Positions 49,287 to 63,673 of a stretch of 64,000 bases of DNA are shown here, piece by piece. Source of the DNA: Candidatus Poriferihabitaceae bacterium (GTDB lineage: Bacteria; Pseudomonadota; Gammaproteobacteria; Arenicellales; Poriferihabitantaceae); contig OZ253546.1 of assembly GCA_965262585.1 (NCBI GenBank), positions 1,098,547 through 1,162,546 of the forward strand, read 5' to 3'. The translations under genes and the position numbers were made by a program. Numbering within the stretch: position 1 is the first letter of the stretch; the number at the start of each line of letters is the position of its first letter. The notes under the pieces were generated by a model, which was given only the letters and a program-made list of their open reading frames with translations, did no database searches and was not told the origin of the DNA.

Positions 49287-49345
49287 ATTGATTATATGGC
49301 GAAGAAAGGATGGGGGTTTATTTAATTCATACTGACTCCTTTATT
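49262..49345 (+). repeat. Palindromic cassette-boundary element, copy R3
   Basis: Same element. The left arm holds the stop of the oxidoreductase gene (49284-49286). The right arm holds the stop of cassette B (49322-49324). Confidence 0.95.
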
Positions 49346-50467
49346 CTTTTTAGATTTGTTTTTCTCTTTTTCAAGTAACTTAAACAACTGATCGCGCATT
49401 TCTTTAGCTTGTAATTCTTTAGCATCCCATTCTTGTTGGTTTTTAGGTTTTCTACCGAATTCGTCTTGTGTGGCTATAAGCTTCCCTCCATCACCAACAA
49501 TAATTATTCCTCTATCATGTCCAATAGACCTAAATTCTCTGGATATTAATATCTTATCCAATTTTTCCCAGTCTGTACTATTTAGCTGCTTTTCAGGAAA
49601 TAACCATTCTTTTTGTGCAGCAGCAATGTATCTGGATGCTCTACTTTTAAGAATATAATTTATCCCTAATACTGACTGAGTATCTAATTTTCGCCCCCTA
49701 ATAATATCATCATATTTAACTATTGTATCGTCGAAGTATCGAGCATTAGTCCTAGATTTAAGTGCTTTTAATTTTCCAGGATTTCTGGCGTATTCAGTAT
49801 TTGTTAGAATAACACAGTGATTTAAATCTATTGGAAAAATTGTTCTTGTTCCCATTAGCTCAATTCCTGGGTCATTAGGAAATTCACAGTATTTTGATTT
49901 AGGGTAGCAAGCAGGGTTATATGTAGTAATGGGTGTATCGCTAACTATGAATTTAATATCCGAATCTTCGGCACTTACAACTTCCATAACTGCTTCTGCC
50001 CACATGGTGCAATTCATTTGGCGTACAGTTTGCATTTCATGGAGTAAAGTATTGTAATCTTTTGGCTTCAATGTATTTATTAGCCAATTTAGACCCCGTG
50101 GTGTTCTAAGTTTCTGAGCATCCATATATTCAAAAAAGTTTAGGACATGAGGGTGTAGTTTCCTCATCCAGTTATCAGATGCTAAGACTGGGAGTGCACG
50201 CGAACCTATAGTATCTATTTTTCCAAATAGGTGTGTTTCAATATCATCATTATCTATTCCAAAGTATTTAGTAGTATACAAGTCAATTTCGTAGAATAAT
50301 TTACGTGGTCCTTTTTGTACTACCTCTCCTTTTTTTATTACTGTTCCATCAGGTATTTTTTCTGTTTTTGGATGAAAGTCTAATCTATGATATGACGATT
50401 GCCCTTTGAGCATGAAGCGCCTTTGATACCATATTGGCACATAATGGTGTTTATGTGATATTGCCAT
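49322..50467 (-). CDS. Cassette B: DUF4238-family protein
   Basis: AT-rich 381-aa ORF beginning MAISHKHHYVPIWYQRRF, the H-Y-V-P-x-x-Y-x-x-x-F signature I associate with DUF4238. Confidence 0.7.
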   Translation of the reverse strand: MAISHKHHYVPIWYQRRFMLKGQSSYHRLDFHPKTEKIPDGTVIKKGEVVQKGPRKLFYEIDLYTTKYFGIDNDDIETHLFGKIDTIGSRALPVLASDNWMRKLHPHVLNFFEYMDAQKLRTPRGLNWLINTLKPKDYNTLLHEMQTVRQMNCTMWAEAVMEVVSAEDSDIKFIVSDTPITTYNPACYPKSKYCEFPNDPGIELMGTRTIFPIDLNHCVILTNTEYARNPGKLKALKSRTNARYFDDTIVKYDDIIRGRKLDTQSVLGINYILKSRASRYIAAAQKEWLFPEKQLNSTDWEKLDKILISREFRSIGHDRGIIIVGDGGKLIATQDEFGRKPKNQQEWDAKELQAKEMRDQLFKLLEKEKNKSKKNKGVSMN

Positions 50468-50485
50468 TTCATTTATATGATTTCA

Positions 50486-50568
50486 AATAAAGGGGTCAGT
50501 GTGAATTAAATTGATTATACGGCCACGAAGGGATGAGGGTTTATTTAATTCACACTGACCCCTTTATT
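50486..50568 (+). repeat. Palindromic cassette-boundary element, copy R4
   Basis: Near-consensus copy. It lies 18 nt from the cassette B start and abuts the cassette C stop codon. Confidence 0.95.
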
Positions 50569-50569
50569 C

Positions 50570-51484
50570 TTATAGAATCTCATGTATCCGTAAATAAATA
50601 TTGCCTGTTTCTGAGGCTTTGCGACGTTTACGTAGCAATAATTGAACTAAATCAATTCTGCCCTCTAAAACAGCCATTAAATCACTACCATCCATAAGAA
50701 TTATAAGGCGTCTACCAGAAGAGTGTACTTTTACTGCATCTTCTGAGAAACCGTTAACTGATAGGAATAGCCCAAGTGTATTCTCTAACTTACGGGATAA
50801 CTTGCCAATCATTCCGTCTAGATCTTTTGCTGCCACAGGTTTTTGTTGCCATTTCGCCTCTAGTAGATAATCCGTCCCCTCAAAACTAAATGCACCATCT
50901 ATTTGTTCGCCAGTAATTTTAAAGGATGCTTTAGGATCGAGATCAAATAGGTCAAATAGACCTTTTAATACTTTCTCAAGGTTGTATCCACGTTGTTGCG
51001 GGTTATCAGAGCTAGCTAGCAAACAAAATTCTGTTTTTAGTTTATCCAATCCACCTTGAACGGCATTAACTTGCATGAGTTTATCGTGTGCTTTTTGACG
51101 ACGTTCTTCAGATTGCTTTTGTTCTTCTTCTATATCTTGATGTCCTTTCAATTGAGCACGAAGGGCTTCTACTGCTGCCTTAGCTTCTTCTGCCTTTTTA
51201 TTGCCATCCTCTAGCTTTCGCAGATGTGAAAAGTCTGTAACATCACTTACCTCTGACATTATACGAATGAGATCACGCTGACACACCTCCTCATTCATCG
51301 CCAAGTGGTCTACTACTGTAGCTACTATATTTCTTTTGTATTCTTCCCAATTTAGACGTGAAAGAATCCCTGGATCAGATATGCATTGAGATAGAAAACT
51401 GCGCAATTCTGATTTGTACCAGTAAATGAGCGTTAAAGCTTCCTTTAGTGCCTGTATCGCTGCGGGTGCTATTGTTTTCTGCAT
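50570..51484 (-). CDS. Cassette C: helical/coiled-coil N-domain fused to an Mrr-like PD-(D/E)xK restriction-endonuclease-fold C-domain
   Basis: AT-rich 304-aa ORF. A central Glu/Lys coiled coil, then C-terminal RGYNLEKVLKGLF ... GEQIDGAFSFEGTDYLLEAKWQQKPV ... LFLSVNGFSEDA (E / D / E-x-K core). Confidence 0.55.
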   Translation of the reverse strand: MQKTIAPAAIQALKEALTLIYWYKSELRSFLSQCISDPGILSRLNWEEYKRNIVATVVDHLAMNEEVCQRDLIRIMSEVSDVTDFSHLRKLEDGNKKAEEAKAAVEALRAQLKGHQDIEEEQKQSEERRQKAHDKLMQVNAVQGGLDKLKTEFCLLASSDNPQQRGYNLEKVLKGLFDLFDLDPKASFKITGEQIDGAFSFEGTDYLLEAKWQQKPVAAKDLDGMIGKLSRKLENTLGLFLSVNGFSEDAVKVHSSGRRLIILMDGSDLMAVLEGRIDLVQLLLRKRRKASETGNIYLRIHEIL

Positions 51485-51485
51485 G

Positions 51486-51568
51486 AATAAAAAGATCAGT
51501 GTGAATTAAATTGATTATACAGCCAAGAAGAGATGGGGGTTTATTTAATTCACACTGACTCCTTTATT
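51486..51568 (+). repeat. Palindromic cassette-boundary element, copy R5
   Basis: Same element with GGGG changed to AAGA in the left arm. It starts 1 nt from the cassette C start codon. Confidence 0.9.
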
Positions 51569-51582
51569 CCTTGTTAGATCGT

Positions 51583-52026
51583 TCATACCGAACTATCTAA
51601 AGTTCGTTTAATCATTGATGTCATATCACCAATTGCTCTGTATATATCATCACCTATTTGACATTTAATCAAAGAATCCTCCTCTGTTTTATAACCATGT
51701 ATTTTACTTTGTAGAAGTTGTGTTTTAGTTTCGAATTCTCCAATCTTAAATTTGTGGGCATTATCCTGAACTTTATCTAAAAAATCTTGAATACTATTTA
51801 TTACAGTTTGAGAATCTACACCACGCATAGGTTTGTTGGCCGGTGTTACAATTTTTCTGCACTCTTCTCTTGCACGATTCGCTGAAGATGCTAATTCAAT
51901 CAGTACAATTTTCAACCTATCTGATTTTATTTCTTCTTTATAAGTTTTTGCCTTATATGCCTGCCAAAAAGATAAGCTAGTTCCTATGAAGGTCAACCCA
52001 ATAGCAACAATATTCCAAAAATCCAT
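51583..52026 (-). CDS. Cassette D, gene 2: small protein with one N-terminal TM helix, unknown function
   Basis: 147 aa. A hydrophobic helix FWNIVAIGLTFIGTSLSFW is followed by a charged helical domain. The start lies 1 nt after the stop of the upstream gene. Confidence 0.5.
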   Translation of the reverse strand: MDFWNIVAIGLTFIGTSLSFWQAYKAKTYKEEIKSDRLKIVLIELASSANRAREECRKIVTPANKPMRGVDSQTVINSIQDFLDKVQDNAHKFKIGEFETKTQLLQSKIHGYKTEEDSLIKCQIGDDIYRAIGDMTSMIKRTLDSSV

Positions 52027-52027
52027 T

Positions 52028-52561
52028 TTATGCCATCCATGATGTGTCTACTATTTCGAGACCTGCTCTTTCAAAATATGAGTCGTAGTCATAAGTAGTT
52101 ATCAAAGAATTTAGCAATCGAAAAAAATGATATTTGTCTTTTGCTACGGTTAATTTTTCAATATCGTTAGTATCACGGTTAAACACCATTTGGGGAAGAG
52201 GAAGTTGACAACGTCCTCCATCAACAGTAACGTAAATGTCCCGATAAACTAATTGGCCGTAATAAAAAAAATCAACATAGCCACTTGATGCATGTGGATC
52301 TGGAAAGCCATTAGCCCATTTTTCTTTAAAGTCATCATTATGGGAAATTCCCCAAGCGACAGAGATAGACAGATCACTTTTAAGTGAAATTAATTCATCA
52401 TGCGAATCAACTTTTATATTGCTAAATTCTCCACCGCCTGTATTCCAAACTACAAATTTATTGAAGTATGAAGGCCCTGACCCGGATCCCCAGCAAGCAA
52501 TTCGATTCCAATCTTCTTTTTCTGCATCAAGAATCTGATCTTGATATTCTTTTAAATTCAT
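52028..52561 (-). CDS. Cassette D, gene 1: hypothetical soluble protein, no recognisable domain
   Basis: 177-aa AT-rich ORF with no motif I can assign. Confidence 0.5.
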   Translation of the reverse strand: MNLKEYQDQILDAEKEDWNRIACWGSGSGPSYFNKFVVWNTGGGEFSNIKVDSHDELISLKSDLSISVAWGISHNDDFKEKWANGFPDPHASSGYVDFFYYGQLVYRDIYVTVDGGRCQLPLPQMVFNRDTNDIEKLTVAKDKYHFFRLLNSLITTYDYDSYFERAGLEIVDTSWMA

Positions 52562-52627
52562 AAGTCCTCGTAAAATATTTTAGAGTTAACGTCTAGTATA
52601 AGGCAGTTTCGCCCTAATGCAAGAGTA

Positions 52628-52708
52628 GTAAAAAAGTCAGTATAAATTAAATTAATTATACAACCAAAAAGAGCTGAAGCTTTATTTAATTCACACCACC
52701 CCCTTTAT
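52628..52708 (+). repeat. Palindromic cassette-boundary element, degenerate copy R6
   Basis: AAAAAGTCAGTATAAATTAAAT...ATTTAATTCACACCACCCCCTTTAT. The right arm holds the last codons and the stop (52686-52688) of the paiB-like gene. Confidence 0.8.
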
Positions 52709-53336
52709 CCTGCCCTCGCACTACCTCAGCCATTTCCACGCTTGCTTGCCGTTCCTCTTTTAGCAGTCCTTCGACTACGCCGTGGCGGTCGTGGGGTGGG
52801 CGGTTTTGGCTGGCTTTGTATTTGCCGGTTAGGCGGGTGATGGGTATTTCAAGGCCGACGATGGCGTCCAGTTGTTGGGTGATAAAATCATCTGGCGCGT
52901 CCGTTACTTTCCATGGTTGGGGGCGGTTGGCTTCGTGGTGGTTGGTGAGGCGTTCGACTAACTCGCGTAGCCATGCGCGGTCTTCAATTACTCGCAATGA
53001 ACCGTGTGCGTGGACGACCGCGTAGTTCCAGGTCGGCACGACTTGCCCGGTGGTTTGTTTGGTCGCATACCAGGACGGGGAAATGTAGGCGTCGGGGCCG
53101 CGGAATATCGCCAGCGAGTCGGCTTCGGGGGAATACTCGCGCCATAGTGGGTTGGCGCGTGCAATGTGGCCGCGCAAGGTGCCGAAAGGGGCCGGGTCGG
53201 GGGTCGTCTCAAAGGGAATATGATGCGCGTCCAGTCCGTTTGCGGTGAGCGTCACCAGCGTTGCCAGCGGATACGCACGCATTAAGTCATGGAGAATTTC
53301 AACCCGCGTTTCCGCAAAGTATTTGGGTGTATACAT
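52686..53336 (-). CDS. FMN-binding negative transcriptional regulator (PaiB family)
   Basis: GC-rich 216-aa ORF. MYTPKYFAE...LATLVT...HIPF...GHIARANP follows the PaiB pattern. Confidence 0.85.
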   Translation of the reverse strand: MYTPKYFAETRVEILHDLMRAYPLATLVTLTANGLDAHHIPFETTPDPAPFGTLRGHIARANPLWREYSPEADSLAIFRGPDAYISPSWYATKQTTGQVVPTWNYAVVHAHGSLRVIEDRAWLRELVERLTNHHEANRPQPWKVTDAPDDFITQQLDAIVGLEIPITRLTGKYKASQNRPPHDRHGVVEGLLKEERQASVEMAEVVRGQDKGGGVN

Positions 53337-53345
53337 AAACGTCTC

Positions 53346-53600
53346 TCAAGTTTTTTGTTGGACAATCTGCTCCAGCGTTTCCTGCCAAATCTGATAGTAG
53401 GCGTCGTTGTCTTTAATCGCGTTGTGTTTTTCGAATTTGGCGATGTTGTTGGCTAGTAGTGCCGCCCATTCCTTCCATGTGAACAATCCCGATTGATTAA
53501 GTTGCACCGCCAGCGCAAAGGTTCGTGCTTGCCACGGTGCGGCGAAGACTGGTTCGCCGTTGGCTTGGGGTTGTCCGGCGATGGCTTTAAGACGCGCCAT
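53346..53600 (-). CDS. Nitrile hydratase accessory (activator) protein
   Basis: The short ORF PVFAAPWQARTFALAVQL...FTWKEWAALL is typical of NHase accessory proteins. The start is placed at the ATG at 53600; the longer ORF-track version is unlikely. Confidence 0.65.
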   Translation of the reverse strand: MARLKAIAGQPQANGEPVFAAPWQARTFALAVQLNQSGLFTWKEWAALLANNIAKFEKHNAIKDNDAYYQIWQETLEQIVQQKT

Positions 53601-54279
53601 CCACCGCCTCCAGATACGCTTCGAATAAATCGACATACACCGCCAACCGCCCCGTTTCTTTTTCATCCCACAGTTGTTCCGTTTCAAAACGCACGCTATA
53701 AAGATGTTGCGATTGTTTTTCCCCGCGCGCCGCGTGTGCGTCCGGAAAAACATGCGCGCCGTGATGATAGACGATTATGCCGTGGCGGCCGTGCGTGTAA
53801 CGCGGTGCGCGGGTGTGGGGTTGGGGCATCACCGCCCGCACTGTGACGCGGGTGTCGATGGCGAAACGCGGGGCGGTGTCGGCGGGCAGTTGGGTGGATG
53901 CGCCGCTACGCAGAATTTTCGCGATTTGTGCGCGCTCAACTGCGGGTAACTCTCCGCCGCCGACCGACTCGCCGCTTTGCAATTCGGTTTCGCTGACTAG
54001 GCCGTGCTCAACCAGCAGCAGTTCCAGACCATGCAACCAATGTTCATAATAACTGCCGGCGAGGTAATGCGCCGGTTCCATTTGTTCGCGGGCGCAACGC
54101 GATTGATCCAGATTCCATCGGCCAAGCATGCCGCAAGCGAGCGTCATGCCAAAAACGCTCTCCTCCCATTGCTTCGCAAACAACTCGCTCTGACTGCGGT
54201 CGACCGAACCGAAGCCGCGCATACCGCCGAGGTCATGGGCGAGGCCGAGGTCGGGGTCGTGAACGGGATAGTCGGACAT
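53587..54279 (-). CDS. nthB: Nitrile hydratase beta subunit
   Basis: N-terminal HDLGGM signature and the C-terminal SH3-like region of the beta subunit. The ATG at 54279 is preferred over the TTG at 54303. Confidence 0.85.
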   Translation of the reverse strand: MSDYPVHDPDLGLAHDLGGMRGFGSVDRSQSELFAKQWEESVFGMTLACGMLGRWNLDQSRCAREQMEPAHYLAGSYYEHWLHGLELLLVEHGLVSETELQSGESVGGGELPAVERAQIAKILRSGASTQLPADTAPRFAIDTRVTVRAVMPQPHTRAPRYTHGRHGIIVYHHGAHVFPDAHAARGEKQSQHLYSVRFETEQLWDEKETGRLAVYVDLFEAYLEAVDGAS

Positions 54280-54299
54280 AATGATTGCAGGTGTCCGGC

Positions 54300-54929
54300 T
54301 CAAGCAACCGAGTCGGCCAAAGCAACGCCGATCATCGAATCGCGCGTGATTAGTTTCGCCAACTGCCGGGTATCCAGATGTTCGCTACCGGGCGGTCTTT
54401 GTGGCAACACCAGATAGCGAATTTCCGCGGTCGAATCCCAGACGCGCACTTCAACTTCGTCATCCAGCGACACGCCAAATTCGGCCAACACCGCACGCGG
54501 TTCGCGCACCGCCCGGGCGCGATATTCAGACGCCTTATACCAAGTCGGCGGCAAGCCAAGCACCGGCCACGGATAACACGAACACAGCGTGCACACCACC
54601 AAGTTGTGCACCGCATCGGTGTTTTCTACAACCCGCATGTGTTCGCCTTGACGACCGGCATAACCCATTTCCATAATCGCGGCGGTGGCATCGGCAAGCA
54701 AACGTTGCTTGTATTCGGCATCAGTCCAAGCACGCGCAACCACCCGCGCACCGTTCTTCGGGCCAACGCGGTTTTCATAAGTATCCACCAACTCATCCAT
54801 CGCCTTAGCATCCACCAGTCCTTTTTCAATCAATAAATTTTCCAGCGACTTAACCCGCGCTTCGATTTCGCTCGGGCCGTGGTGATGATGGGGGTGTTTG
54901 TTCATGTCTTTACTCATGTCTTTACTCAT
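54300..54929 (-). CDS. nthA: Nitrile hydratase alpha subunit, cobalt type
   Basis: The metal-binding motif [11 protein letters not shown] (C-T-L-C-S-C-Y) is the cobalt-type signature; the iron type has C-S-L-C-S-C-T. Confidence 0.92.
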
Positions 54930-54938
54930 GCTATTTAC

Positions 54939-56360
54939 TTAGGGGATACGCCTGCGGTTCAAAGTTTGCTCGACGGTTGCGGCGATTTCATAAAGGTATT
55001 GATCTTCACCGTTACCGGCGGACAACATCAACCCCACCGGTGCTTGCCCCGGCGTATGACACGGCAGACTAACAGCGCAACCGTCAAAAAAATTAACCGT
55101 GGAAGTGTTGCGCAGGCATTTCATATTAACCTCGGGCATTTGTTCGACATCATCCGTCTCGGAAATAGCGGGTGGCACGCATTGCACGGTCGGATACACC
55201 AGCACATCGGCCCCGGCCTCGCGCATCTGCTGCCGACAAGCGACCACCAAAGCGGCCTTTTCTTGATAGCACTCGCGCCGCGCATCGGCATCAAACGCGC
55301 GCCCGGCACTCATCCGTTGGCGCACGAACGGATCGTATTCATCCCCCCGACTCTGCAAACGTTCTTGATGATCCTGCCACGCCTCAAACACCGCCACGGC
55401 GCGCCGCCGAAACATATCAACGCAACCTTCAAGCGCCGGCAGCGGAGCGCGATCCACGGTCACGCCATCATCCGCAAGCCACCGAAGCGCATCCTCAAAA
55501 GCCGCCGCGACTTGCGCATCGAGAGCCTCCATAACGATCGATTCGGGCACTAGCAAGCGAATGGATTTCGGTGGGCGAACTGACAATACCGGCAGCGGTT
55601 CGCCGTGTTTCAAACGCCCGGTTATGATGTGGTCGAGAATGAAACAACCATCCAAATCGTTAGCCAGCGGGCCCGGCGTATCCGAAGTCGGCGACAGCGG
55701 ATAAACACCGCGCAACGACACCCTGCCGTAGGTTGGCTTGACGCCGACTATGCCGTTGAACGCCGCCGGAACACGGCACGACCCGGCGGTATCCGAACCG
55801 ACACCGGCCGCCACAATCCCCTCGGCAACGCTCACCGCATTGCCCGAAGACGAGCCGCCCGGCAACCTGCCGATGTCGCGCTGCCAAATGCTTTTTGGGT
55901 TGCCGTAATGGGGGTTCAAACCCATGCCGCTAAAAGCAAATTCGCTCATGTTGGCGCGCCCGACAAACAACGCCCCGGCATCGCGCAAATGCCCGACCAC
56001 CACCGCATCAGCCTTCTCGACCGGCGCCTCGTCCCGCAACACCACCGAACCGGCAAGCGTCTGCTGGCCCTGCACATTAAATAAATCTTTAAGCGCAAGC
56101 GGCACCCCGGCAAGCACCGGCAACGGCTCACCATTAGCACGCGCACGGTCGATCTGAACAGCCTGCTGCAACGCATCGTAATTGATACGAATAAACACCC
56201 CTTCCGACCGCCCCGCCGCCGCCAACGCCTCCCCCACCACCCCCTCGCAACTCCCCCCACCATCCACAAAGGAATTAACCAGTTGCCGTATTGTCGGGTG
56301 GGTATGCATTGGAGCAATGTAGCCCGGATTTGTGGGACTGTCTAGTGGGGTAGCGTTCAT
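54939..56360 (-). CDS. Amidase (amidase-signature family)
   Basis: 473 aa with the AS-family Gly/Ser-rich block GGSSSGNAVSVA. It lies first in the operon with the NHase genes. Confidence 0.9.
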   Translation of the reverse strand: MNATPLDSPTNPGYIAPMHTHPTIRQLVNSFVDGGGSCEGVVGEALAAAGRSEGVFIRINYDALQQAVQIDRARANGEPLPVLAGVPLALKDLFNVQGQQTLAGSVVLRDEAPVEKADAVVVGHLRDAGALFVGRANMSEFAFSGMGLNPHYGNPKSIWQRDIGRLPGGSSSGNAVSVAEGIVAAGVGSDTAGSCRVPAAFNGIVGVKPTYGRVSLRGVYPLSPTSDTPGPLANDLDGCFILDHIITGRLKHGEPLPVLSVRPPKSIRLLVPESIVMEALDAQVAAAFEDALRWLADDGVTVDRAPLPALEGCVDMFRRRAVAVFEAWQDHQERLQSRGDEYDPFVRQRMSAGRAFDADARRECYQEKAALVVACRQQMREAGADVLVYPTVQCVPPAISETDDVEQMPEVNMKCLRNTSTVNFFDGCAVSLPCHTPGQAPVGLMLSAGNGEDQYLYEIAATVEQTLNRRRIP

Positions 56361-56380
56361 TGTGTATTGCTCGACTCGTC

Positions 56381-56490
56381 GTCATTCTCGTGAAAGTGGG
56401 AATCTAGTAAGACATGTCGGTGTAAGCCGCTCATTGTCATTCCCGTGAAAACGGGAATCCAGTAAGACATGTCGGCGTAAGCCGCTCATT
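56381..56490. repeat. Tandem duplication (2 x 55 bp) of a REP-type unit
   Basis: GTCATTCTCGTGAAAGTGGGAATCTAGTAAGACATGTCGGTGTAAGCCGCTCATT is followed by a near-identical copy. Confidence 0.9.
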
Positions 56491-56651
56491 AATAATGTTC
56501 GGCAACTGCCGACCGTTTTGTTATACACTACCCGCATCCTCGTCCGGGCTGTCAAACGGAATTTTGCGCCCTTTTCCAAAGATTTTTTATGTTCCAGTTA
56601 CACAAAATAATCTCCTATCTTCCCACCAATTTTTAGCACTCGGAACCATCC

Positions 56652-58271
56652 ATGCCGACCCTCGATTTCAAAGGCAAACAAATTATCTACGCGCACCACT
56701 TGACCGCCCCGTCAAAAGCGATTGAGGTGAACGCGAAAAAGTCGCTTCCGGCGAAAGGCACAAAGCCGTCCCTCGACGACAACCTGATTATCCACGGCGA
56801 TAACCTGCACGCGCTCAAGGCGTTGATGCCGCGTTATGCGGGGCGGGTGAATTGTATCTATATTGACCCGCCGTATAACACCGGCAACGAAGGATGGGTT
56901 TACAACGACAATGTGAATAGCGCAATGATGAAGGAGTGGTTGAAAGATAAAGGTTCAGTAGATGGTGAGGATTTGGAACGGCATGATAAGTGGCTTTGTA
57001 TGATGTGGCCGAGATTGCAGTTGTTGCGGGAGTTGTTGGCCGAAGATGGGGTGATTTTTATTTCCATTGATGATAAAGAGCAGCACCATCTGCGGATGAT
57101 GATGGATGAGATTTTTGGTGAGAATAATTTTGTTGGTAATATAGGATGGGAGTCCAAAACAAAGACACAGAACACAAAAGACTCTTTCAATAAATTACAA
57201 CCTAAAATAGAACATATTTTGTGCTATACAAAACTCACCAAAACGCGCTTCAATCTTATTGAAATTGGCAAGAAAAAATACCAAGAAAAAGATGAAAGAG
57301 GCAAGTTTCGTTACGCACAAGTTGAGCTGATGAGTTCGTTAGGAATTCGTTCACGCGATAGTATGATATTTCCCATATTAGGCATTAACCCACCGCCCAA
57401 CAAGCAATGGAAAATCGGCAAGCAGACGATAAAAAAATTTCGCGACCGCGGCGACCTTACAAAAAAAGAAAGCACGCCTTACCTTAAAATGCGACCTGCT
57501 GACGAACGAATAGAAAAGACAGAGCCTTTTTGGGGACTTTTCTCAAAAGAAAAGGGCACAGCCGAAAGTGCAAAAAAAGAATTGTCGGCAGTTTTAGAAT
57601 CGACTTCACATGGATTTGAAACAGTCAAACCTGTAAACGTTATAAAGCAACTTCTGTTCCATTCTACAAAACATGGAGACACCATCCTCGACTCCTTCGC
57701 CGGCTCCGGCACCACCGCCCACGCCGTCCTTGCCCTCAACAAAGAAGACGGCGGCAACCGAAAATTCATCCTCGTTGAATGCGAAAACTACGCCGACAAA
57801 ATCACCGCCGGACGAGTACGCCGAGTAATCAAGGGCGTGCCAAAAGCCAAAGATGAAACCCTGAAAAAAGGACTCGGCGGAAGTTTCACCTACTGCACAT
57901 TGGGCGATGAAATCAACATCGAAAAAATGCTCGCCGGCAAAAAACTACCGGACTACGAAACCTTAGCCCGCCATGTCGTCTATACCGCAACCGGCCAATC
58001 CCCACACAAAATCCGCAAACAACATGGCGAAGACGGGTTTTTCTACGAAACCAACGACAGGATATATTACTTGGTCTATAAACCAGAACTCGCTTTCCTG
58101 CGAAGCGCCGCCTCGGCCCTGAATGGCATCCGCGCCAAACGCATCGCCAAACAAGCCAAAACAAAAAAGAAAACCGCAATCGTATTCGCCACGCATAAAT
58201 TCATAGGACAAAAAGAATTAACAGCAATGGGAATTGTGTTTTGTGGGTTGCCGTATAGTACAAATTTATGA
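56652..58271 (+). CDS. mod: Type III restriction-modification methyltransferase (Mod; beta-class N6-adenine/N4-cytosine MTase)
   Basis: Motif IV IYIDPPYN comes before motif I DSFAGSGTTAHA (beta-class order), separated by a long variable central region. A res gene follows. Confidence 0.85.
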   Translation: MPTLDFKGKQIIYAHHLTAPSKAIEVNAKKSLPAKGTKPSLDDNLIIHGDNLHALKALMPRYAGRVNCIYIDPPYNTGNEGWVYNDNVNSAMMKEWLKDKGSVDGEDLERHDKWLCMMWPRLQLLRELLAEDGVIFISIDDKEQHHLRMMMDEIFGENNFVGNIGWESKTKTQNTKDSFNKLQPKIEHILCYTKLTKTRFNLIEIGKKKYQEKDERGKFRYAQVELMSSLGIRSRDSMIFPILGINPPPNKQWKIGKQTIKKFRDRGDLTKKESTPYLKMRPADERIEKTEPFWGLFSKEKGTAESAKKELSAVLESTSHGFETVKPVNVIKQLLFHSTKHGDTILDSFAGSGTTAHAVLALNKEDGGNRKFILVECENYADKITAGRVRRVIKGVPKAKDETLKKGLGGSFTYCTLGDEINIEKMLAGKKLPDYETLARHVVYTATGQSPHKIRKQHGEDGFFYETNDRIYYLVYKPELAFLRSAASALNGIRAKRIAKQAKTKKKTAIVFATHKFIGQKELTAMGIVFCGLPYSTNL

Positions 58272-58930
58272 TTTTAAACACTTTATACGTACTTGGTGCA
58301 GTAGCAAGCATTAGGGATTTTTTTTATGATGGAGCAGCGAATCTTTCGCCATGGCTCATCTTGACTATCGGCGTGCTGTGTACAGCAACATTTTGGAAAA
58401 AAAATCGTTCGCCATGGATATTCTTGACTATCGGCGTGCTGTTCGTGGTGGTGATTTGGGGGTTAAATCGTTCGCCATCACCCCCTGCGAAGGATCAAGA
58501 AAGTGAAGAATCTATTGTGGTAACTCAAGAAAGTGAAGAATCTATTGTGGTAACTCAAGAAAGTGAAGAAGTGTTAGTTCCAGGAAATGAACAACTTGAA
58601 GAGTTAAATGAACACACCAATTTGACCTTAAGGAAATTGGAAATTGCTTTTTTATCCGCACAGAAAATATCTAGCACTATATCTCGCGATGAAACATTAG
58701 AACTTGTGATTACGAAGGCTTTACAAAGTGAAGAAGATAAATTTGCTTTTAAGGTTGCACTCCAAATTTCTTCTATCCGTTCTCGAGACAAGATGTTGAT
58801 AAGGATAATTGACAAGTCTCTGGAAAATGGAAATATAGATACTGCAGAATCAGTATCTAATAAGATTTCTTCCATCTTAACTCGTGATGAGGTAAAAAGA
58901 AAAATAGTTGATTTTATTTTTATAGACTAA
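58268..58930 (+). CDS. Repeat-containing membrane protein of unknown function inserted between mod and res
   Basis: 220 aa, AT-rich. Contains duplicated TM modules (SPWLILTIGVLCTATFWKKNR / SPWIFLTIGVLFVVVIWGLNR), QESEESIVVT at 2.5 copies, and three ISSxxSRDxxL..I helical repeats. The ATG overlaps the mod stop (ATGA). Confidence 0.55.
   Translation: MILNTLYVLGAVASIRDFFYDGAANLSPWLILTIGVLCTATFWKKNRSPWIFLTIGVLFVVVIWGLNRSPSPPAKDQESEESIVVTQESEESIVVTQESEEVLVPGNEQLEELNEHTNLTLRKLEIAFLSAQKISSTISRDETLELVITKALQSEEDKFAFKVALQISSIRSRDKMLIRIIDKSLENGNIDTAESVSNKISSILTRDEVKRKIVDFIFID
58496..58570 (+). repeat. Perfect 30-bp in-frame tandem repeat (2.5 copies) inside the membrane-protein gene
   Basis: CAAGAAAGTGAAGAATCTATTGTGGTAACT occurs twice, plus a 15-bp partial copy. 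Confidence 0.9.
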
Positions 58931-58980
58931 TAATTCAATGCACATTAAAAATCACCAACCCAAATCCCTGGAACATTGAT

Positions 58981-61527
58981 ATGCAACTCAAAAACTACCA
59001 ACAACAAACCCTCGATCAATTAGACCGATGGCTTGATGCGCTCAAAGAAGCCCGTTTGGAAGGCGAAAAGACGATCAAAGTTCTTGAGAAACAAAAAATC
59101 GATGTCCCCGAAGTAGTGCGGAATTATCCCGAAACCGCATGGAAAAGCCTGAGCAACCAAAACCTTCTCCCCCGCATTCAACAACAAGACGGGGACTCTA
59201 AAACCCCCGGCTACATTTCCCGCACCGCATCATCCGGCGCACCTATTCCGCATGTTTGCTTGAAAATTCCAACCGGCGGTGGCAAAACACTTTTGGGAGT
59301 CTCCGCTTTGGAGCGCATCAAACAAGACACCGGTTTTGTTTTGTGGATTGTGCCGACTAGGGCGATTTACCAGCAAACCCTGACTGCTTTTCGAACCCGT
59401 GAACATCCTTACCGGCAGATGCTTGAGCGAATCTCCGGTGGCAAGGTCAAACTGCTGCAAAAAGTCGACCGATTTACCCGGCAGGATATTGAAAGCCAAC
59501 TGTGCGTGATGATGCTGATGTTGCCGGCGGTCAACCGGCAAAAGGGCAAGGGTTTTCTCAAGATATTCCGCGACAGCGGCGGGTATACCTCGTTCTTTCC
59601 CGAACAAGATGATGCGGGCGCAAATACAATTCTTTCGCAACAGCATCCCGACTTGGAAAAAAATCAAACCGGCGACTGGGTAAAGCAAAGCTTGATTAAC
59701 ACTCTGAAACTGATTCGCCCGACCGTGATTTTGGACGAAGCGCATAAGGCATATGGGAAAAAAGACGCAACCGAGTTTGTAAAGTCCGTCAACCGACTCA
59801 ATCCTCGCTTTGTTGTTGAACTGTCGGCCACGCCGAAACTCGGCATCAGCAACATTCTGGTCGATATTTCGGGAACCGCGCTTCAAGACGAGGAGATGAT
59901 TAAACTCCCGATAGAGATTCGCAGTTTCATTAATTCTGACTGGAAACACACGCTTGCCGAAACACAAAATAAATTGGCCGAACTGGAACGGGAAGCGAAG
60001 AAATCGCAACACCACGGGGGCGGTTATATTCGGCCAATCGCGCTGGTACGCGTGCAGAGAACCGGGAAAAACCAGCGCAAGCAGGGGTATATTCATTCCG
60101 ATGATGCGCGGGAATACCTGATACAAAATCTTTCCGTGCCGGAACAACACATACGAATTCAATCATCAGAACAAAAGGAACTGGCGGGCGAAGATCTGCA
60201 CAGCGAAACAAGCCCGGTGCGCTGGATTATCACAAAAGATGCGCTCAAAGAGGGTTGGGATTGCTCGTTTGCGTATCTTCTGGCGTTGCTGGATAACACC
60301 ACGGCGTCAACGGCGATGACGCAAATGGTCGGGCGGGTAATGCGACAGCCATACGCGCAACTGGTTAAAAAAAGCGCGGCGTTGAACCAGTGTTATGTCT
60401 ACTGTTACAACATGGATGTGGGCACGGCGGTTAAAGGAGTGAGCGCCGGGCTGGAAAACGAAGGGCTGACCGGACTTGGTAACGCTATTCGCGGATACGG
60501 CGGCGGAGAACAACCGCAACGGCAAACCGTCAAACGCAGGCAACCCTATAAAAAGTTAAACATTTGTCTCCCGCAGGTGCTACATAAAGAAGGGAATGGA
60601 TGGCGTCCGATTGATTACGACCGCGATATTTTGAGCGCGGTGAACTGGGACAAAATTAGCGGCGGCCATGCGGTTAATTTGGATGATGAAGATGTCGTCC
60701 GGGAATGCAAAACCACGATTGACATTCAGGGGCAAGGCGAGGTGTTGGAAGAGAACTATGACACTGGAGAAAGTCTGACGCTGGATTATTTTGTCCGGCG
60801 GCTTACGGATATGATTCCCAATCCGTGGCAAGCGGCGCGCGTGGCGGAGAATTTCATCGGCAAGCACAGCAACCCGCAACACGGCGATTCCAAATTATTG
60901 AATAACCGAATTTATCTTTCGGAGGTATTGAGAAAGAGGGTGAAAAAAGATATTGACGGCAAAGCCGAAACGGTGTTCCGCGCTAAAGTCGGACGAAACG
61001 AAATCAGGTTTCATCTTGTGGCCGATAAGAACCTGAACCACGAACTAAGCAATTCGTTCGAGGTGGTTGTGTCCGGTGACGCACGAACATTGCAAGCCCA
61101 ACACGGTCAACCGATACAGCGAAGCCTGTTTTCCCCCATTTATGAAAACAATTTCAACGGACTTGAAAAAGATTTTGCGCTGTATCTGGACGAAAGCGAT
61201 GCGATCTATTGGTGGCATCGAATCGCCGCACGGCAGGCGTATTCTCTTCAAGGCTGGCGGCGACAACGGGTTTATCCCGACTTTGTGGCGTGCAGAAAAG
61301 AAAACGGCACTCTGCTGGTTTTAGAAACAAAAGGCGCGCACTTGCAAGGCAACGAAGATACGATCTACAAGAAAAAACTGCTTGATGCGCTTGAGAAAAC
61401 TTACACGACCGCCATCGACAGGGGAACATTGGAAATCAATGAATTCCCCGCCGCCACTTTCAGAATGATGTTTGAGAACAGTTGGAAAGAGGATGTGAAC
61501 GCCCTCATCTCCGACACACAACCATAA
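58981..61527 (+). CDS. res: Type III restriction endonuclease Res subunit (SF2 helicase + PD-(D/E)xK nuclease)
   Basis: Walker A LKIPTGGGKT, DEAH box ILDEAHKAYG, motif VI-like MVGRVMRQP, and a C-terminal nuclease motif YPDF...VLETKG. Confidence 0.85.
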   Translation: MQLKNYQQQTLDQLDRWLDALKEARLEGEKTIKVLEKQKIDVPEVVRNYPETAWKSLSNQNLLPRIQQQDGDSKTPGYISRTASSGAPIPHVCLKIPTGGGKTLLGVSALERIKQDTGFVLWIVPTRAIYQQTLTAFRTREHPYRQMLERISGGKVKLLQKVDRFTRQDIESQLCVMMLMLPAVNRQKGKGFLKIFRDSGGYTSFFPEQDDAGANTILSQQHPDLEKNQTGDWVKQSLINTLKLIRPTVILDEAHKAYGKKDATEFVKSVNRLNPRFVVELSATPKLGISNILVDISGTALQDEEMIKLPIEIRSFINSDWKHTLAETQNKLAELEREAKKSQHHGGGYIRPIALVRVQRTGKNQRKQGYIHSDDAREYLIQNLSVPEQHIRIQSSEQKELAGEDLHSETSPVRWIITKDALKEGWDCSFAYLLALLDNTTASTAMTQMVGRVMRQPYAQLVKKSAALNQCYVYCYNMDVGTAVKGVSAGLENEGLTGLGNAIRGYGGGEQPQRQTVKRRQPYKKLNICLPQVLHKEGNGWRPIDYDRDILSAVNWDKISGGHAVNLDDEDVVRECKTTIDIQGQGEVLEENYDTGESLTLDYFVRRLTDMIPNPWQAARVAENFIGKHSNPQHGDSKLLNNRIYLSEVLRKRVKKDIDGKAETVFRAKVGRNEIRFHLVADKNLNHELSNSFEVVVSGDARTLQAQHGQPIQRSLFSPIYENNFNGLEKDFALYLDESDAIYWWHRIAARQAYSLQGWRRQRVYPDFVACRKENGTLLVLETKGAHLQGNEDTIYKKKLLDALEKTYTTAIDRGTLEINEFPAATFRMMFENSWKEDVNALISDTQP

Positions 61528-61643
61528 ACACCGCTTCTTTGGTAAATTTTTATCGCGATGCAGGATTTTATTGTGTAATCGCTTTGAGTATGCCGCCGCC
61601 TTGATTTATAATCTTTGCTCTGTTCACACAAACCTAAAACCAA

Positions 61644-62678
61644 ATGATTTCAACCATTACATTTTTGCCAGTTGCCGTTGTTCGGATTGCCTTGTTTGTC
61701 GGGTTGTTGTTTTGCCATATGACCTACGCTGCTGACGGCCCGCTTCGGGCTTGCACCGATGACGCGCGCGCGCTTAACTTTGGTTTCTACGCATTTTTCG
61801 CGCCGGTTAGTTACAACGCCGATTCGGATCCGGCGGCGGCGGGGTTTAATACGCACCTCGGTTATGAAGCGGATTTGTTGAGCGCTTTGGAGGCGATGGA
61901 AGGCGCGGGGTTGTCGTTTTCGCGGCGACCGATTGCCGCATGGGATGACATTTGGTTGCAGTCCGCCGGCCAACAATATGACTTGGTCGGTGGCGGCATC
62001 ACCATCCTCGACTCGCGCACCCGCGATGCCGCCGGTAAAAAGGCGGTCGCTTTTACCTCGGGACACATCGCCTTTCGCCAGTCGCTGCTGGTGCGCGCCG
62101 AAGACGCACCGCGTATGGCAAGCCATGACGACCTGAACAGCGAAGTGCAAGTCGGTGCGCTTGCCGGCACCACCGGCGAAGCCCGCTTGTTGCAACTAAC
62201 CGGGCTGGCCGACGCCAATGGAATCCTGACCGCCGGCGTACGCATCGACACTCCGCGCGGCATATTAACCGCAGACGGCGGCGATGGTTACATGATCACC
62301 GCCGCCGCCGAATCTCCCAACCTCAGCAACCGAACGCGACTTTATCCCCCGGCACAAACCATGCCCGAAATTATTTACCTCGGCGATCAGACCGGTGAAA
62401 TCGAACTGCTGGAAGCACTCGGCAACGGCCGCATCGATGCAATCGCCAGAGGCGAGATCGGCAACCGCGATGCCGCCCACGCTTCCAACAACGCTTTTGT
62501 AGTCGCCGCCCTAGACCCCGAAATCGAACTCGGCGGCTTCACCGTAGCCACCAAAAACGCCGACCTTCTCTCCTGCATAGACGACAAAATCAACCTGCTA
62601 ACGGATAACCAACGCATCGGCTACGCCGAATGGCTGAAAGACCCCCAAATATTCCTACGCCGCGCGCGTGCGGAATGA
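61644..62678 (+). CDS. Periplasmic solute-binding protein (family 3, amino-acid-type SBP-like)
   Basis: GC-rich. Signal peptide ending TYAADG. The overall PBPb-like pattern (F..PVSY..., GGGITI...R) is a weak motif-level call. Confidence 0.6.
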   Translation: MISTITFLPVAVVRIALFVGLLFCHMTYAADGPLRACTDDARALNFGFYAFFAPVSYNADSDPAAAGFNTHLGYEADLLSALEAMEGAGLSFSRRPIAAWDDIWLQSAGQQYDLVGGGITILDSRTRDAAGKKAVAFTSGHIAFRQSLLVRAEDAPRMASHDDLNSEVQVGALAGTTGEARLLQLTGLADANGILTAGVRIDTPRGILTADGGDGYMITAAAESPNLSNRTRLYPPAQTMPEIIYLGDQTGEIELLEALGNGRIDAIARGEIGNRDAAHASNNAFVVAALDPEIELGGFTVATKNADLLSCIDDKINLLTDNQRIGYAEWLKDPQIFLRRARAE

Positions 62679-62691
62679 CGGGGTTCGATAA

Positions 62692-62826
62692 TCCGGCAGC
62701 GAACAAGCAGGTCTGCGCCGCCGCACCGTTTCGCGTATCAACATAGATAACATTTTTGCTAGGCATTACGGTGTCACCGAGGAAGAACTGGATTACATTG
62801 TCAACTACGATATCGAATGGGATTAG
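62692..62826 (+). pseudogene. Orphan 3' fragment of a DNA-methyltransferase-like gene
   Basis: This frame reads ...RINIDNIFARHYGVTEEELDYIVNYDIEWD-stop. It resembles the conserved C-terminal tail (HYGLTxEELDFIINYDIKYR) seen on some defence-associated SAM-dependent DNA methyltransferases. There is no upstream body or start; an in-frame stop sits at 62689. Confidence 0.35.
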
Positions 62827-62830
62827 GAAA

Positions 62831-63673
62831 ATGAATACGAAAAACTATGAATCTTTTTCCGTAAGGCATGGCTATGAGGAACCCAAGCCCATCCAATACG
62901 AAAGTATGGATAGAGATTTGCGTACTGGCCTTTGGAATGCGCTTCACCGTTGTTTCCCAAATGACTTCGACCGCGCTCAATTTCCTCATGAAATTTATGA
63001 AATTATTTGGACAAATTTTCTTACAAAACCCGTCACTGAATACGATAGTGAGTTTATAATGTTTGACGGAGAACGTATAAGACTTGTAGAGGGACAGATT
63101 TTTTTGTTACCATGGAACGAGATTTACGATCTAATAGAGTTTGTCATTGTTAACACTGACCCGGATGATACAAGTAGTAGGGACGATTTCATCAATCGAT
63201 GCAATCAAATATTGGGCAAAGAAAATTCCGCTTATAAAATCGTTGCCGATCTTGTAACACCAATCACCAACGAACAAGAAATCCAAGCCATAGAAAGTGC
63301 CATGGCAACGCCGTATGAAGGCGCAAACAATCATATAAACAATGCGCTTTCCCTTTTTTCGCACCGCGAAAATCCCGACTATCCAAACTCCATCAAAGAA
63401 TCCATCTCCGCCGCAGAATCAATCGTTAGGATAATTACCGGTGCAGATTCTTTCGCCGCCGGGGTGAACAATCTTGAGGAATACGGAATCAAACTGCATG
63501 GCGCCCATCAGAGTGCACTAAAAAGCCTCTACGGGTTCACCAGCGATGCCGATGGCATTCGCCACGCATCAACGAACAGCGAACCATTGGACATAAACCA
63601 AAACACCGCCCGCTTTATGCTCATCACCTGCTCCGCCTTCGTCAATTACATAATTTCGGAGAAAAACGACTGA
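62831..63673 (+). CDS. AbiJ-like protein (AbiJ N-terminal domain 4 + C-terminal HEPN-like domain)
   Basis: FSVRHGYEEPKPIQYESMDRDLRTGLWNAL matches the AbiJ-NTD4 pattern as I recall it. The C-terminal NSIKESISAAESI...LYGFTSDADGIRHAS...ARFMLITCSAFVNYI is HEPN-like. ATG at 62831 with an AGGA RBS. Confidence 0.6.
   Translation: MNTKNYESFSVRHGYEEPKPIQYESMDRDLRTGLWNALHRCFPNDFDRAQFPHEIYEIIWTNFLTKPVTEYDSEFIMFDGERIRLVEGQIFLLPWNEIYDLIEFVIVNTDPDDTSSRDDFINRCNQILGKENSAYKIVADLVTPITNEQEIQAIESAMATPYEGANNHINNALSLFSHRENPDYPNSIKESISAAESIVRIITGADSFAAGVNNLEEYGIKLHGAHQSALKSLYGFTSDADGIRHASTNSEPLDINQNTARFMLITCSAFVNYIISEKND

Follow-up and report, generated by a model that had tools for sequence, protein, structure and literature searches.

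A Type III restriction-modification operon with a gene between mod and res

The window analysed here is a stretch of 64,000 nucleotides (nt) from a Candidatus Poriferihabitaceae bacterium (assembly GCA_965262585.1, contig OZ253546.1, positions 1,098,547 to 1,162,546), and its positions 56652-61527 hold an R-M (restriction-modification) operon of Type III with an additional gene. The methyltransferase gene mod, a middle open reading frame (ORF) of 220 amino acids (aa) and the restriction-subunit gene res all lie on the + strand in that order, as read from the ORF map and the sequence. Instead of the adjacent mod and res genes of the usual two-gene Type III layout, the operon has a 709-nt insert that carries the 220-aa gene:

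56652-58271, + strand: mod, Type III DNA methyltransferase, 539 aa (Pfam N6_N4_Mtase, E=3e-37; PADLOC MTase_III PDLC03644, full length, E=2e-130)
58268-58271, + strand: ATGA overlap between the mod stop codon (TGA) and the start codon (ATG) of the middle gene (sequence)
58268-58930, + strand: middle (cargo) gene, predicted 220-aa membrane-anchored protein with three helical repeats (ORF map)
58931-58980, + strand: 50-nt spacer from the stop of the middle gene to the start of res, with 1 base different in the sister-strain contig L001 (sequence)
58981-61527, + strand: res, Type III restriction subunit, 848 aa (Pfam ResIII and DEAD; PADLOC REase_III PDLC03653, E=2e-219)

The Mod translation contains IYIDPPYNTG (DPPY) and DSFAGSGTT (FxGxG, AdoMet-binding), as expected of a methyltransferase, and the Res translation contains PTGGGKT, DEAH and QMVGRVMRQ (QxxGRxxR) as well as a C-terminal YPDF...LETKG (PD...ExK), as expected of a joint helicase and nuclease; Res residues 1-839 align to profile positions 1-878 of 883 in PDLC03653. 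Judged from their sequences, both enzymes look canonical and intact. A first-pass annotation of this DNA had reported an extra gene that overlaps the mod stop codon by ATGA and is followed 50 nt later by res, and its coordinates are exactly reproduced. It had further described the gene as a translationally coupled membrane-protein gene in a Type III operon. The overlap and the hydrophobic helices were borne out, and the coupling is something that we infer, because no Shine-Dalgarno-like purine run lies upstream of the middle gene's ATG.

No promoter-like site was found on the + strand between mod and res, and the sole + strand terminator-like match in the middle ORF (58292-58315) has a weak stem with 3 G-C pairs, from a scan that returned 13 sites against 7.6 in shuffled sequences. 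The middle gene is accordingly taken to be co-transcribed with mod and res. A search of Rfam over 56000-62000, including the 50-nt spacer, returned no match and thus no known RNA. The GC content is 34-42% in the middle ORF, ~50% in mod and res, and ~60% in the host flanks. The centre of mod (57100-57550), presumed to be the target-recognition region, is also AT-rich (36-41% GC) and shows no difference from L001 (100% identity).

An always-occupied slot in related operons

Relatives of Res were collected by scanning one genome per species. Proteins 63-77% identical to the window Res were found in about 20 metagenome-assembled genomes of Pseudomonadota (Ca. Spongiihabitans, Ca. Poriferihabitaceae and Halieaceae), Nitrospinota, Nitrospirota, Thermodesulfobacteriota and Chloroflexota, followed by a 54% identical relative in Ca. 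Poribacteria. Many records of these relatives are named for sponge symbionts, and the hosts on the Res tree belong to at least six phyla. Counting the window, L001 and the related loci L043 and L044, 23 loci encode a Res that is at least 63% identical. In all 23, mod and res are separated by 0.56-4.7 kb, and the GC content of this gap is under that of res in every locus printed. Among distant relatives (Res 29-54% identical), mod-res gaps are mostly ~2-60 nt (~2 nt in L018 and ~22 nt in L022, the two deepest relatives, and mostly ~20 nt in more distant Type III loci and plasmids), and in plasmid relatives (Res ≤43% identical) mod and res adjoin wherever both are annotated, leaving no slot. The Poribacteria relative (L018:2481-5974) has two tandem mod genes followed by res and carries no cargo.

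The family of the window's middle gene occupies the gap in 4 of the 23 loci, and unrelated genes stand in the same place in the other 19. A survey of homologous mod-res loci for the middle gene, which the first-pass annotation had proposed as a check, therefore yields neither simple presence nor simple absence: the gene is found in 4 of 23, and the place is always filled, with varied cargo. The mod-res junction of this clade is, on this comparison of loci, very probably a cargo slot, and the window gene its cargo. About a dozen unrelated cargo types were named by Pfam and PADLOC:

Class-3 lipase (Lipase_3): 6 loci plus 1 remnant (L006:4921-6000, L019:4903-6000, L020:4913-5995, L021:4909-6000, L009:1345-2442, L010:3131-4198)
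Conserved ~270-290-aa protein with a PIN nuclease: 6 loci, with a fragment of the 290-aa gene in L013 (L002:4660-5990, L012:4682-5988, L014:1350-2515, L016:4710-5990, L017:4713-5989, L009:3054-4373)
DUF6978 with DUF1828 (PDC-M24B): 3 loci
TPR-DUF2971: 3 loci
HicB-like: 4 loci
DUF6680: 2 loci
HEPN-like, ParE with antitoxin, Trypsin_2, DUF6765 and Y1 transposase: single or few loci
Methyltransferase, kinase-ORC/CDC6-like and 368-aa proteins: 1 locus (L043)

The ATGA overlap with mod recurs in L001, in L043/L044 (with the distant relative P0014) and with the DUF6680 cargo, and its presence with DUF6680 makes the coupling a property of the slot and not of the window's protein. The Res tree has a star-like backbone that does not track host taxonomy, and cargo types are scattered over it. 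The operons L004 (DUF6680) and L007 (DUF6978 with DUF1828) are sister rows on this tree, separated by ~0.06 substitutions per site, and carry unlike cargo.

Several details of individual cargoes were also recorded. The class-3 lipase, the commonest cargo, is ~360 aa long with a GHSLGG motif, its stop codon usually abuts the res ATG, and L003 retains fragments only. The ~290-aa protein has no Pfam or PADLOC match and is always followed by the PIN gene, which overlaps or adjoins it; by this arrangement the pair resembles a toxin or defence module of two genes that is still uncharacterised. Damaged res genes occur as an internal deletion in L021:6001-8199 and as N-terminal fragments only in L032 and L034, so that such operons decay.

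Scars at the cargo borders

In slots with more than one cargo, pieces of the flanking genes stand between the stacked units. Fragments of the res 5' end (encoding the N terminus of Res) stand directly after cargo in L008, L009, L010, L011, L017 and L043, fragments of the mod 3' end (encoding the C terminus of Mod) stand directly before cargo in L008, L009 (three times), L010 and L020, and a res-5' piece adjoins a mod-3' piece in L009 and L020. One homologous crossover in res together with one illegitimate join upstream could add a cargo unit in this way; integration of a fragment made up of mod-3', cargo and res-5' into an occupied slot would leave the same scars, and resident cargo may also be exchanged by recombination in the conserved flanks. 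The slot shares with integron cassette arrays a fixed docking place and promoterless, co-oriented, AT-richer genes that are found across taxa and can be stacked. Unlike in integrons, no attC-like palindrome was found at the cargo borders and no integrase in the operon, and the borders are pieces of mod 3' and res 5' ends, which points to homologous and illegitimate, not site-specific, recombination.

Across 19 loci, third-codon-position identity is 0.70 over res codons 1-10 versus ~0.55 elsewhere; conservation is unusually high over the first ~20 codons of res, and codons 21-80 are its most variable part (codons 1-80 correspond to 58981-59220 of the window). A dedicated docking sequence at the slot borders was considered and set aside on weak hints, the mod 3' end being no more conserved than the rest. 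The sole inverted-repeat pair found is 16 nt long and 81% complementary, with its arms 491 nt apart. No mod or res remnants were detected elsewhere in the window, including the sequence before an AbiJ-like gene downstream of the operon, and no Res relatives were found on viral contigs, so that no phage carriage was seen.

A divergent cargo allele in a sister strain

A word-indexed search of 5.8 billion clustered proteins returned a sole close homologue of the cargo protein, encoded on L001, a metagenome contig of 1.57 Mb. L001 represents the same chromosomal site, with nitrile hydratase/amidase genes on the left and a solute-binding-protein gene on the right. Amino acid identities, synonymous divergence (dS) and the ratio of nonsynonymous to synonymous divergence (dN/dS) between the window and L001 are as follows:

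Amidase (left flank): 99% aa identity
Solute-binding protein (right flank): 98% aa identity
Host flanks: dS 0.07-0.08, dN/dS 0.05-0.12
Mod: 99% aa identity, dS 0.033, dN/dS 0.10
Res: 98% aa identity, dS 0.030, dN/dS 0.22
Cargo protein: 47% aa identity, in-frame gaps of 63, 75 and 3 nt, dS 0.22, dN/dS 1.16

Nucleotide identity falls from 97-100% to 73-86% just upstream of the cargo ATG and climbs back at its stop codon, so that the cargo gene is ~22% diverged at the nucleotide level versus the one changed base in the 50-nt spacer. A slight surplus of differences extends over the final 0.5 kb of mod and the opening 0.8 kb of res. Most simply, the window and L001 cargo alleles would have been exchanged by recombination. 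No further cargo alleles were found in JGI metagenomes.

The R-M genes (56652-61527) are closer between the two strains (dS 0.03, with long stretches of 100% identity) than are the flanks at 52650-56600 and 61600-62730 (dS 0.07-0.08). The operon is therefore either younger than the strain split or homogenised by recombination, and the cargo is much older. Of 13 Res differences between the strains, 7 fall within the first 74 residues.

Predicted structure of the cargo protein

The cargo protein is predicted to consist of a hydrophobic N-terminal part, an acidic linker and a helical-repeat domain (AlphaFold2 (AF2) models, with confidence given as predicted local distance difference test (pLDDT)):

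58271-58465, + strand: three hydrophobic helices, aa 2-21, 28-45 and 50-66, the third a copy of the second (AF2, hydropathy, 63-nt duplication)
58340-58478, + strand: direct, in-frame duplication of 63 nt over a hydrophobic segment (repeat search; the L001 allele shows a 63-nt gap there)
58466-58609, + strand: acidic disordered linker, aa 67-114, holding a 30-bp tandem repeat (pLDDT 35-59; L001 is without 75 nt here)
58610-58927, + strand: C-terminal domain, aa 115-220, three TPR-like helical hairpins (AF2 pLDDT 94-98)
58670-58681, + strand: hypervariable loop 1, SSTI, aa 135-138 (repeat comparison)
58769-58780, + strand: hypervariable loop 2, SSIR, aa 168-171 (repeat comparison)
58868-58879, + strand: hypervariable loop 3, SSIL, aa 201-204 (repeat comparison)

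Three sequence features named in the first-pass annotation were recovered. Its duplicated transmembrane segments correspond to the 63-nt duplication, which doubles a hydrophobic segment; its QESEESIVVT tandem repeat is a perfect 30-bp repeat at 58495-58570 (period 30, 2.5 copies, 100% matches; Tandem Repeats Finder); and its three ISSxxSRD helical repeats are present with the pattern I-S-S-x-x-[ST]-R-D, at ~33 aa each.

The last 106 residues are modelled as six helices in three hairpins with both a 2-sequence and a 38-sequence alignment. Foldseek searches against PDB and viral structures retrieved generic TPR and designed helical-repeat proteins only, at E 0.036 or worse and template-modelling scores of ≤0.35 normalised to the full-length query, none of them significant, and a sequence-profile search of PDB returned TON_1535 only (PDB 3zpj, E=0.045), a structure also reached by Foldseek. 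The predicted stack of helix-turn-helix hairpins may resemble that of TPR/Sel1-like proteins such as TON_1535 and Fis1 (PDB 1nzn), the latter being, like the cargo protein as predicted, a membrane-anchored short TPR protein. Unlike members of TPR families, the window protein gave no match at family threshold (none to a Pfam TPR family at E 0.01 or better), and it has its own ~33-aa signature, [IM]-x4-5-[RK]-[DN], with a variable loop.

A protein family with hypervariable loops

A profile built on the C-terminal domain and run through an exhaustive HMMER search (E below 1e-3) defined a family of 93 proteins, mostly of 150-200 aa, whose usual plan is one hydrophobic anchor at the N terminus, then a linker of low complexity and three ~33-aa repeats with the above signature. 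No curated family was found that covers these 93 proteins; the nearest is Pfam TPR_30, on which relatives score 14-21 bits, below the cut-off of 29.7.

The four residues that follow the conserved Ile of each repeat (loop positions +1 to +4) stand out from the other repeat positions. Among the three repeats of one protein their identity is 0.41-0.69, and between proteins it is 0.07-0.18; at all remaining repeat positions, within-protein and between-protein identities are about equal. The L001 allele reads FFHD/FYKD/FFHH, and other members have YYNx, YGTP, SYST or FYER. Ser (3x), Tyr (6.7x), Trp (7.5x) and Phe (3x) are over-represented at these positions, which on the AF2 model form the inter-helix loop and the first turn of each hairpin's long helix. 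A comparison of the window with L001 shows 14 of 15 loop residues changed, against 30 of 90 in the rest of the C-terminal domain (Fisher p=1.3e-5). A loop of this kind, homogenised across the repeats of one protein and hypervariable from protein to protein, is not known to us from any described TPR family.

The repeat domain also occurs behind a TIR_2 domain (P0003), a caspase domain (Peptidase_C14; P0039) and a trypsin-like domain (Trypsin_2; P0056). Fusions to TIR, caspase and protease domains are typical of conflict or sensor-effector immune systems. The slot itself holds a distant member, P0014 (177 aa, 31% identical to the window protein), which in L043 and L044 lies directly 3' of a mod gene of the same clade, whose product is 53-60% identical to the window Mod; in L043, P0014 is followed by more cargo and then by a Res 74% identical to that of the window. 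By these comparisons, the gene lineage has kept its place in the slot during moderate divergence of the frame and strong divergence of the cargo. The mod 3' part and the cargo of L043 and L044 share 99-100% nucleotide identity and the mod centre differs (50-60% identity); recombination therefore also reshuffles the frame and swaps the presumed specificity domain.

Other members have no mod or res nearby (L035, L037, L041 and L045-L049), and those of L037 and L038 lie beside a gene for a small PLD-like protein. In L041:181-4757, the member P0009 stands within eight small co-oriented ORFs, one of them a Hypoth_Ymh gene, in an arrangement that resembles a gene-cassette array.

Interpretation and rival explanations

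We favour, with a probability of about 0.55, the reading that the window holds an intact, horizontally acquired Type III operon in which the 220-aa gene is the current passenger of the clade's cargo slot and a candidate for embedded accessory defence. The gene is read as a passenger and not as a fixed third subunit because most sister operons carry other cargo, because the ATGA overlap is also found with DUF6680, and because Mod and Res are near-constant when set against the cargo. It is read as an embedded defence candidate because its company in the slot is mostly of toxin or defence type, because embedding has precedent, because diversification is focused on the loops, and because the anchor interchanges with TIR, caspase and protease domains in relatives. 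Taken by itself, a defence role for the cargo is an even call.

Under the favoured reading, the repeat domain would be a hypervariable protein-binding module that displays its loop three times along one edge, anchored in the inner membrane and co-produced with Mod by way of ATGA coupling. The cargo could then provide an accessory layer of defence, against phage or against other DNA that invades, which would not depend on the R-M chemistry. It might work by exclusion, stopping a phage protein at the membrane, or by abortive infection, triggering membrane damage on binding, the latter by analogy with relatives that have a TIR, caspase or trypsin domain in the anchor's place. Physical association of the cargo with Mod or Res is unlikely to be needed, given the turnover of cargo among related operons.

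Several observations weigh against this reading. The cargo protein has no match above family threshold in Pfam, NCBIfam, PADLOC or PHROGs, and the only sub-threshold matches are to DUF4131, on the window protein's hydrophobic part, and to a PHROG without an assigned function, on the hydrophobic N terminus of the L001 allele. Among the sequencing runs found, none was of a known RNA type. A cargo dN/dS of ~1 also fits relaxed constraint. Toxin-antitoxin pairs and a transposase among the cargo show that plain selfish elements use the slot. Stand-alone members of the family have mixed settings, including housekeeping neighbours in L046 and an IS110 element with an Imm33-like gene in L048, and a link to defence is thus not shown family-wide. 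Some relatives have a signal peptide and another has a cytoplasmic TIR domain, which points to no single compartment of action. The number of hydrophobic segments varies between slot alleles (three in the window, two in L001 and one in P0014), which at face value would flip the membrane side of the repeat domain, and the positive-inside charge bias is ambiguous for topology. It is only a guess that the first segment of the window protein, which is broken by Arg-Asp, no longer spans the membrane and that the duplication compensates for it.

Many of the same observations suit a passenger without a defence role, for which the slot would be a safe harbour in an R-M operon that is hard to lose, mobile and transcribed; the passenger might be an envelope or host-interaction repeat protein, a kind abundant in sponge symbionts, or an orphan immunity protein. 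HicB, ParE with its antitoxin and the Y1 transposase in the slot, the settings of L046 and L048, the cargo dN/dS and the lack of a defence-library match all speak for it. Against it stand the defence or toxin type of most slot cargo (PIN, HEPN-like, PDC-M24B, TPR-DUF2971, lipase and protease), the fusion of the domain to TIR, caspase and trypsin, the focus of change on the loops with frame and helices kept, which points to selection on binding specificity, and the retention of the family in the slot while Res fell to 74% and the cargo to 31% identity. We regard this alternative as possible but on balance doubtful. The first-pass annotation had left three options for the middle gene, of which an Abi-type effector or accessory defence gene and a hitch-hiker are both favoured by these results; the third, a regulator or anchor for the R-M complex, fared badly. 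Such an integral accessory would tether or tune Mod2Res1, for example at the site of phage DNA entry, and the ATGA overlap kept in the window, L001 and L043/L044 alleles, which would tie its production to that of Mod, the lack of an internal promoter-like site or convincing terminator and the long-standing association with the R-M clade are in its favour. Yet the family is present in only 4 of the 23 related mod-res loci, 19 of these close relatives hold unrelated genes instead, the DUF6680 cargo has the same ATGA overlap, family members occur without R-M genes nearby, and near-invariant Mod and Res beside a cargo with 53% of its residues changed are unlike co-adapted partners. An integral role is accordingly judged improbable.

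The two remaining alternatives concern the sequence of the cargo gene. A chance ORF or decaying remnant in a fast-changing spacer would fit the dN/dS of 1.16, a dS seven times that of the flanks, the AT-rich and repeat-ridden sequence and a number of hydrophobic segments that varies by allele. The cargo ORF is nevertheless the only stop-free frame out of six in both alleles, a frame that stayed open in 1-2% of neutral simulations with the observed 111 substitutions (p ~0.01-0.02); all three indels between the alleles are in frame, changes concentrate in three equivalent loops (p=1.3e-5), the C-terminal domain is predicted at pLDDT 94-98, and 93 homologues of like architecture were found. The cargo is almost certainly a real gene of a real family, and a non-functional sequence is very improbable. 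The first-pass annotation had allowed for a random insertion or spurious ORF lacking relatives; what was found is an allele in L001, a 31% identical relative in the slot of L043/L044, and the wider family. Targeted hypermutation of the type driven by diversity-generating retroelements is hardly credible as the source of the allele divergence, even though extreme divergence limited to one ORF and focused on repeated loops would be its expected mark. The substitution spectrum consists mostly of transitions without adenine bias, dS and dN are both elevated, no duplicate of the repeat region that might act as a template was found in the window, the window allele is letter-identical in assembled contigs of four sequencing studies (one of them possibly the source sample), and divergence fades gradually into mod 3' and res 5', like recombination tracts. 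From the missing adenine bias, the missing template in the window and the identity of the allele across four studies, the alleles are taken to be discrete and older and not products of ongoing hypermutation.

Beyond the favoured reading, two linked claims can be made together only tentatively, and we consider the pair rather unlikely: that the Type III operons of this clade are recombinase-free cassette platforms, and that the anchor-plus-three-hairpin family is a new class of programmable receptors for invader proteins. As platforms, the operons would use the mod 3' end and the first res codons as portable homology arms, and defence cargo would circulate between phyla in the sponge microbiome as units of mod-3', cargo and res-5' and would stack, rather as in an integron that lacks its integrase. 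As receptors, the proteins would owe their specificity to the Ser/Tyr-rich 4-residue loop, its three copies rewritten in concert, and their output would run through a membrane anchor or through a TIR, caspase or trypsin-like protease domain.

Comparison with known systems

Genes nested within Hma, BREX, DISARM and Type I R-M systems are often defence systems, and seven have been confirmed experimentally (10.1101/2024.01.29.577857). That study (Payne, Hughes, Fineran and Jackson, 2024) contains no Type III analysis (10.1101/2024.01.29.577857), and among the papers covered by full-text searches none was found that describes genes lying between the mod and res of a Type III system. The cargo genes resemble embedded defence genes in their same-strand nesting between core genes, seen in the 23 related loci, and in that they are diverse, are for the most part uncharacterised and occur away from the host system as well; in addition, PADLOC models of phage-defence candidates are matched by the DUF1828 cargo (PDC-M24B) and, close to the operon, by the AbiJ-like gene (PDC-S32). 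Unlike the systems of the embedding study, the present case concerns one Type III clade, with a slot filled in every member and with res-5' and mod-3' scars.

For a second line of defence linked to R-M, the textbook case is PrrC, an anticodon nuclease of ABC-ATPase type whose gene lies within the EcoprrI Type IC R-M locus and which the R-M enzyme keeps silent until T4 Stp releases it (PMC12707154). The window gene is similarly a non-R-M gene inside an R-M operon, and PrrC is co-expressed with its locus. Unlike PrrC and RloC, the window protein has no match to an ABC-ATPase, other ATPase or nuclease domain in Pfam, NCBIfam or PADLOC, and is predicted to combine a membrane anchor with helical repeats.

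Membrane-tethered exclusion proteins offer a comparison on possible mode of action, not on membership. Ltp of phage TP-J34 is a membrane-anchored superinfection-exclusion protein with tandem helical repeat domains in which few variable residues set specificity (PMC3952083), and SieA of P22 is a small membrane protein that acts at the envelope in superinfection exclusion of incoming phage (PMC10883804). The cargo protein is likewise small and, as predicted, membrane-tethered; it differs from both in having no sequence or significant fold similarity to them and in lying in an R-M operon, whereas Ltp and SieA are prophage-encoded.

Embedding as such is already known; new here are the always-occupied, scar-marked Type III slot and the loop-variable protein family. 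Genes nested in defence operons are a good source of new anti-phage systems, how they enter such operons is an open question, and Type III systems lie outside the published surveys. The clade offers a natural experiment, with one two-gene frame, an ever-filled slot, about a dozen cargoes and molecular scars, and it documents heavy cross-phylum exchange of defence genes within sponge microbiomes. It also adds a new protein family, with a confidently predicted repeat domain, to the defence candidates that can be tested; if loops do set target specificity, the domain could be reprogrammed experimentally.

Strain-variable regions beside the operon

Directly after the solute-binding-protein gene, the window carries at 62756-63673 the AbiJ-like gene (AbiJ_NTD4; PADLOC PDC-S32). 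In the same position L001 (L001:12395-13882) has a 75-aa ORF and an nSTAND1/AAA_16 ATPase gene on the opposite strand. At ~1.2 kb from the R-M operon, this is a second spot where the strains differ in defence genes. To the left, the two strains stop aligning at ~52650, where the window has a low-GC, cassette-like segment (48651-52650) and L001:1-3100 contains an FMN_bind_2 gene and others.

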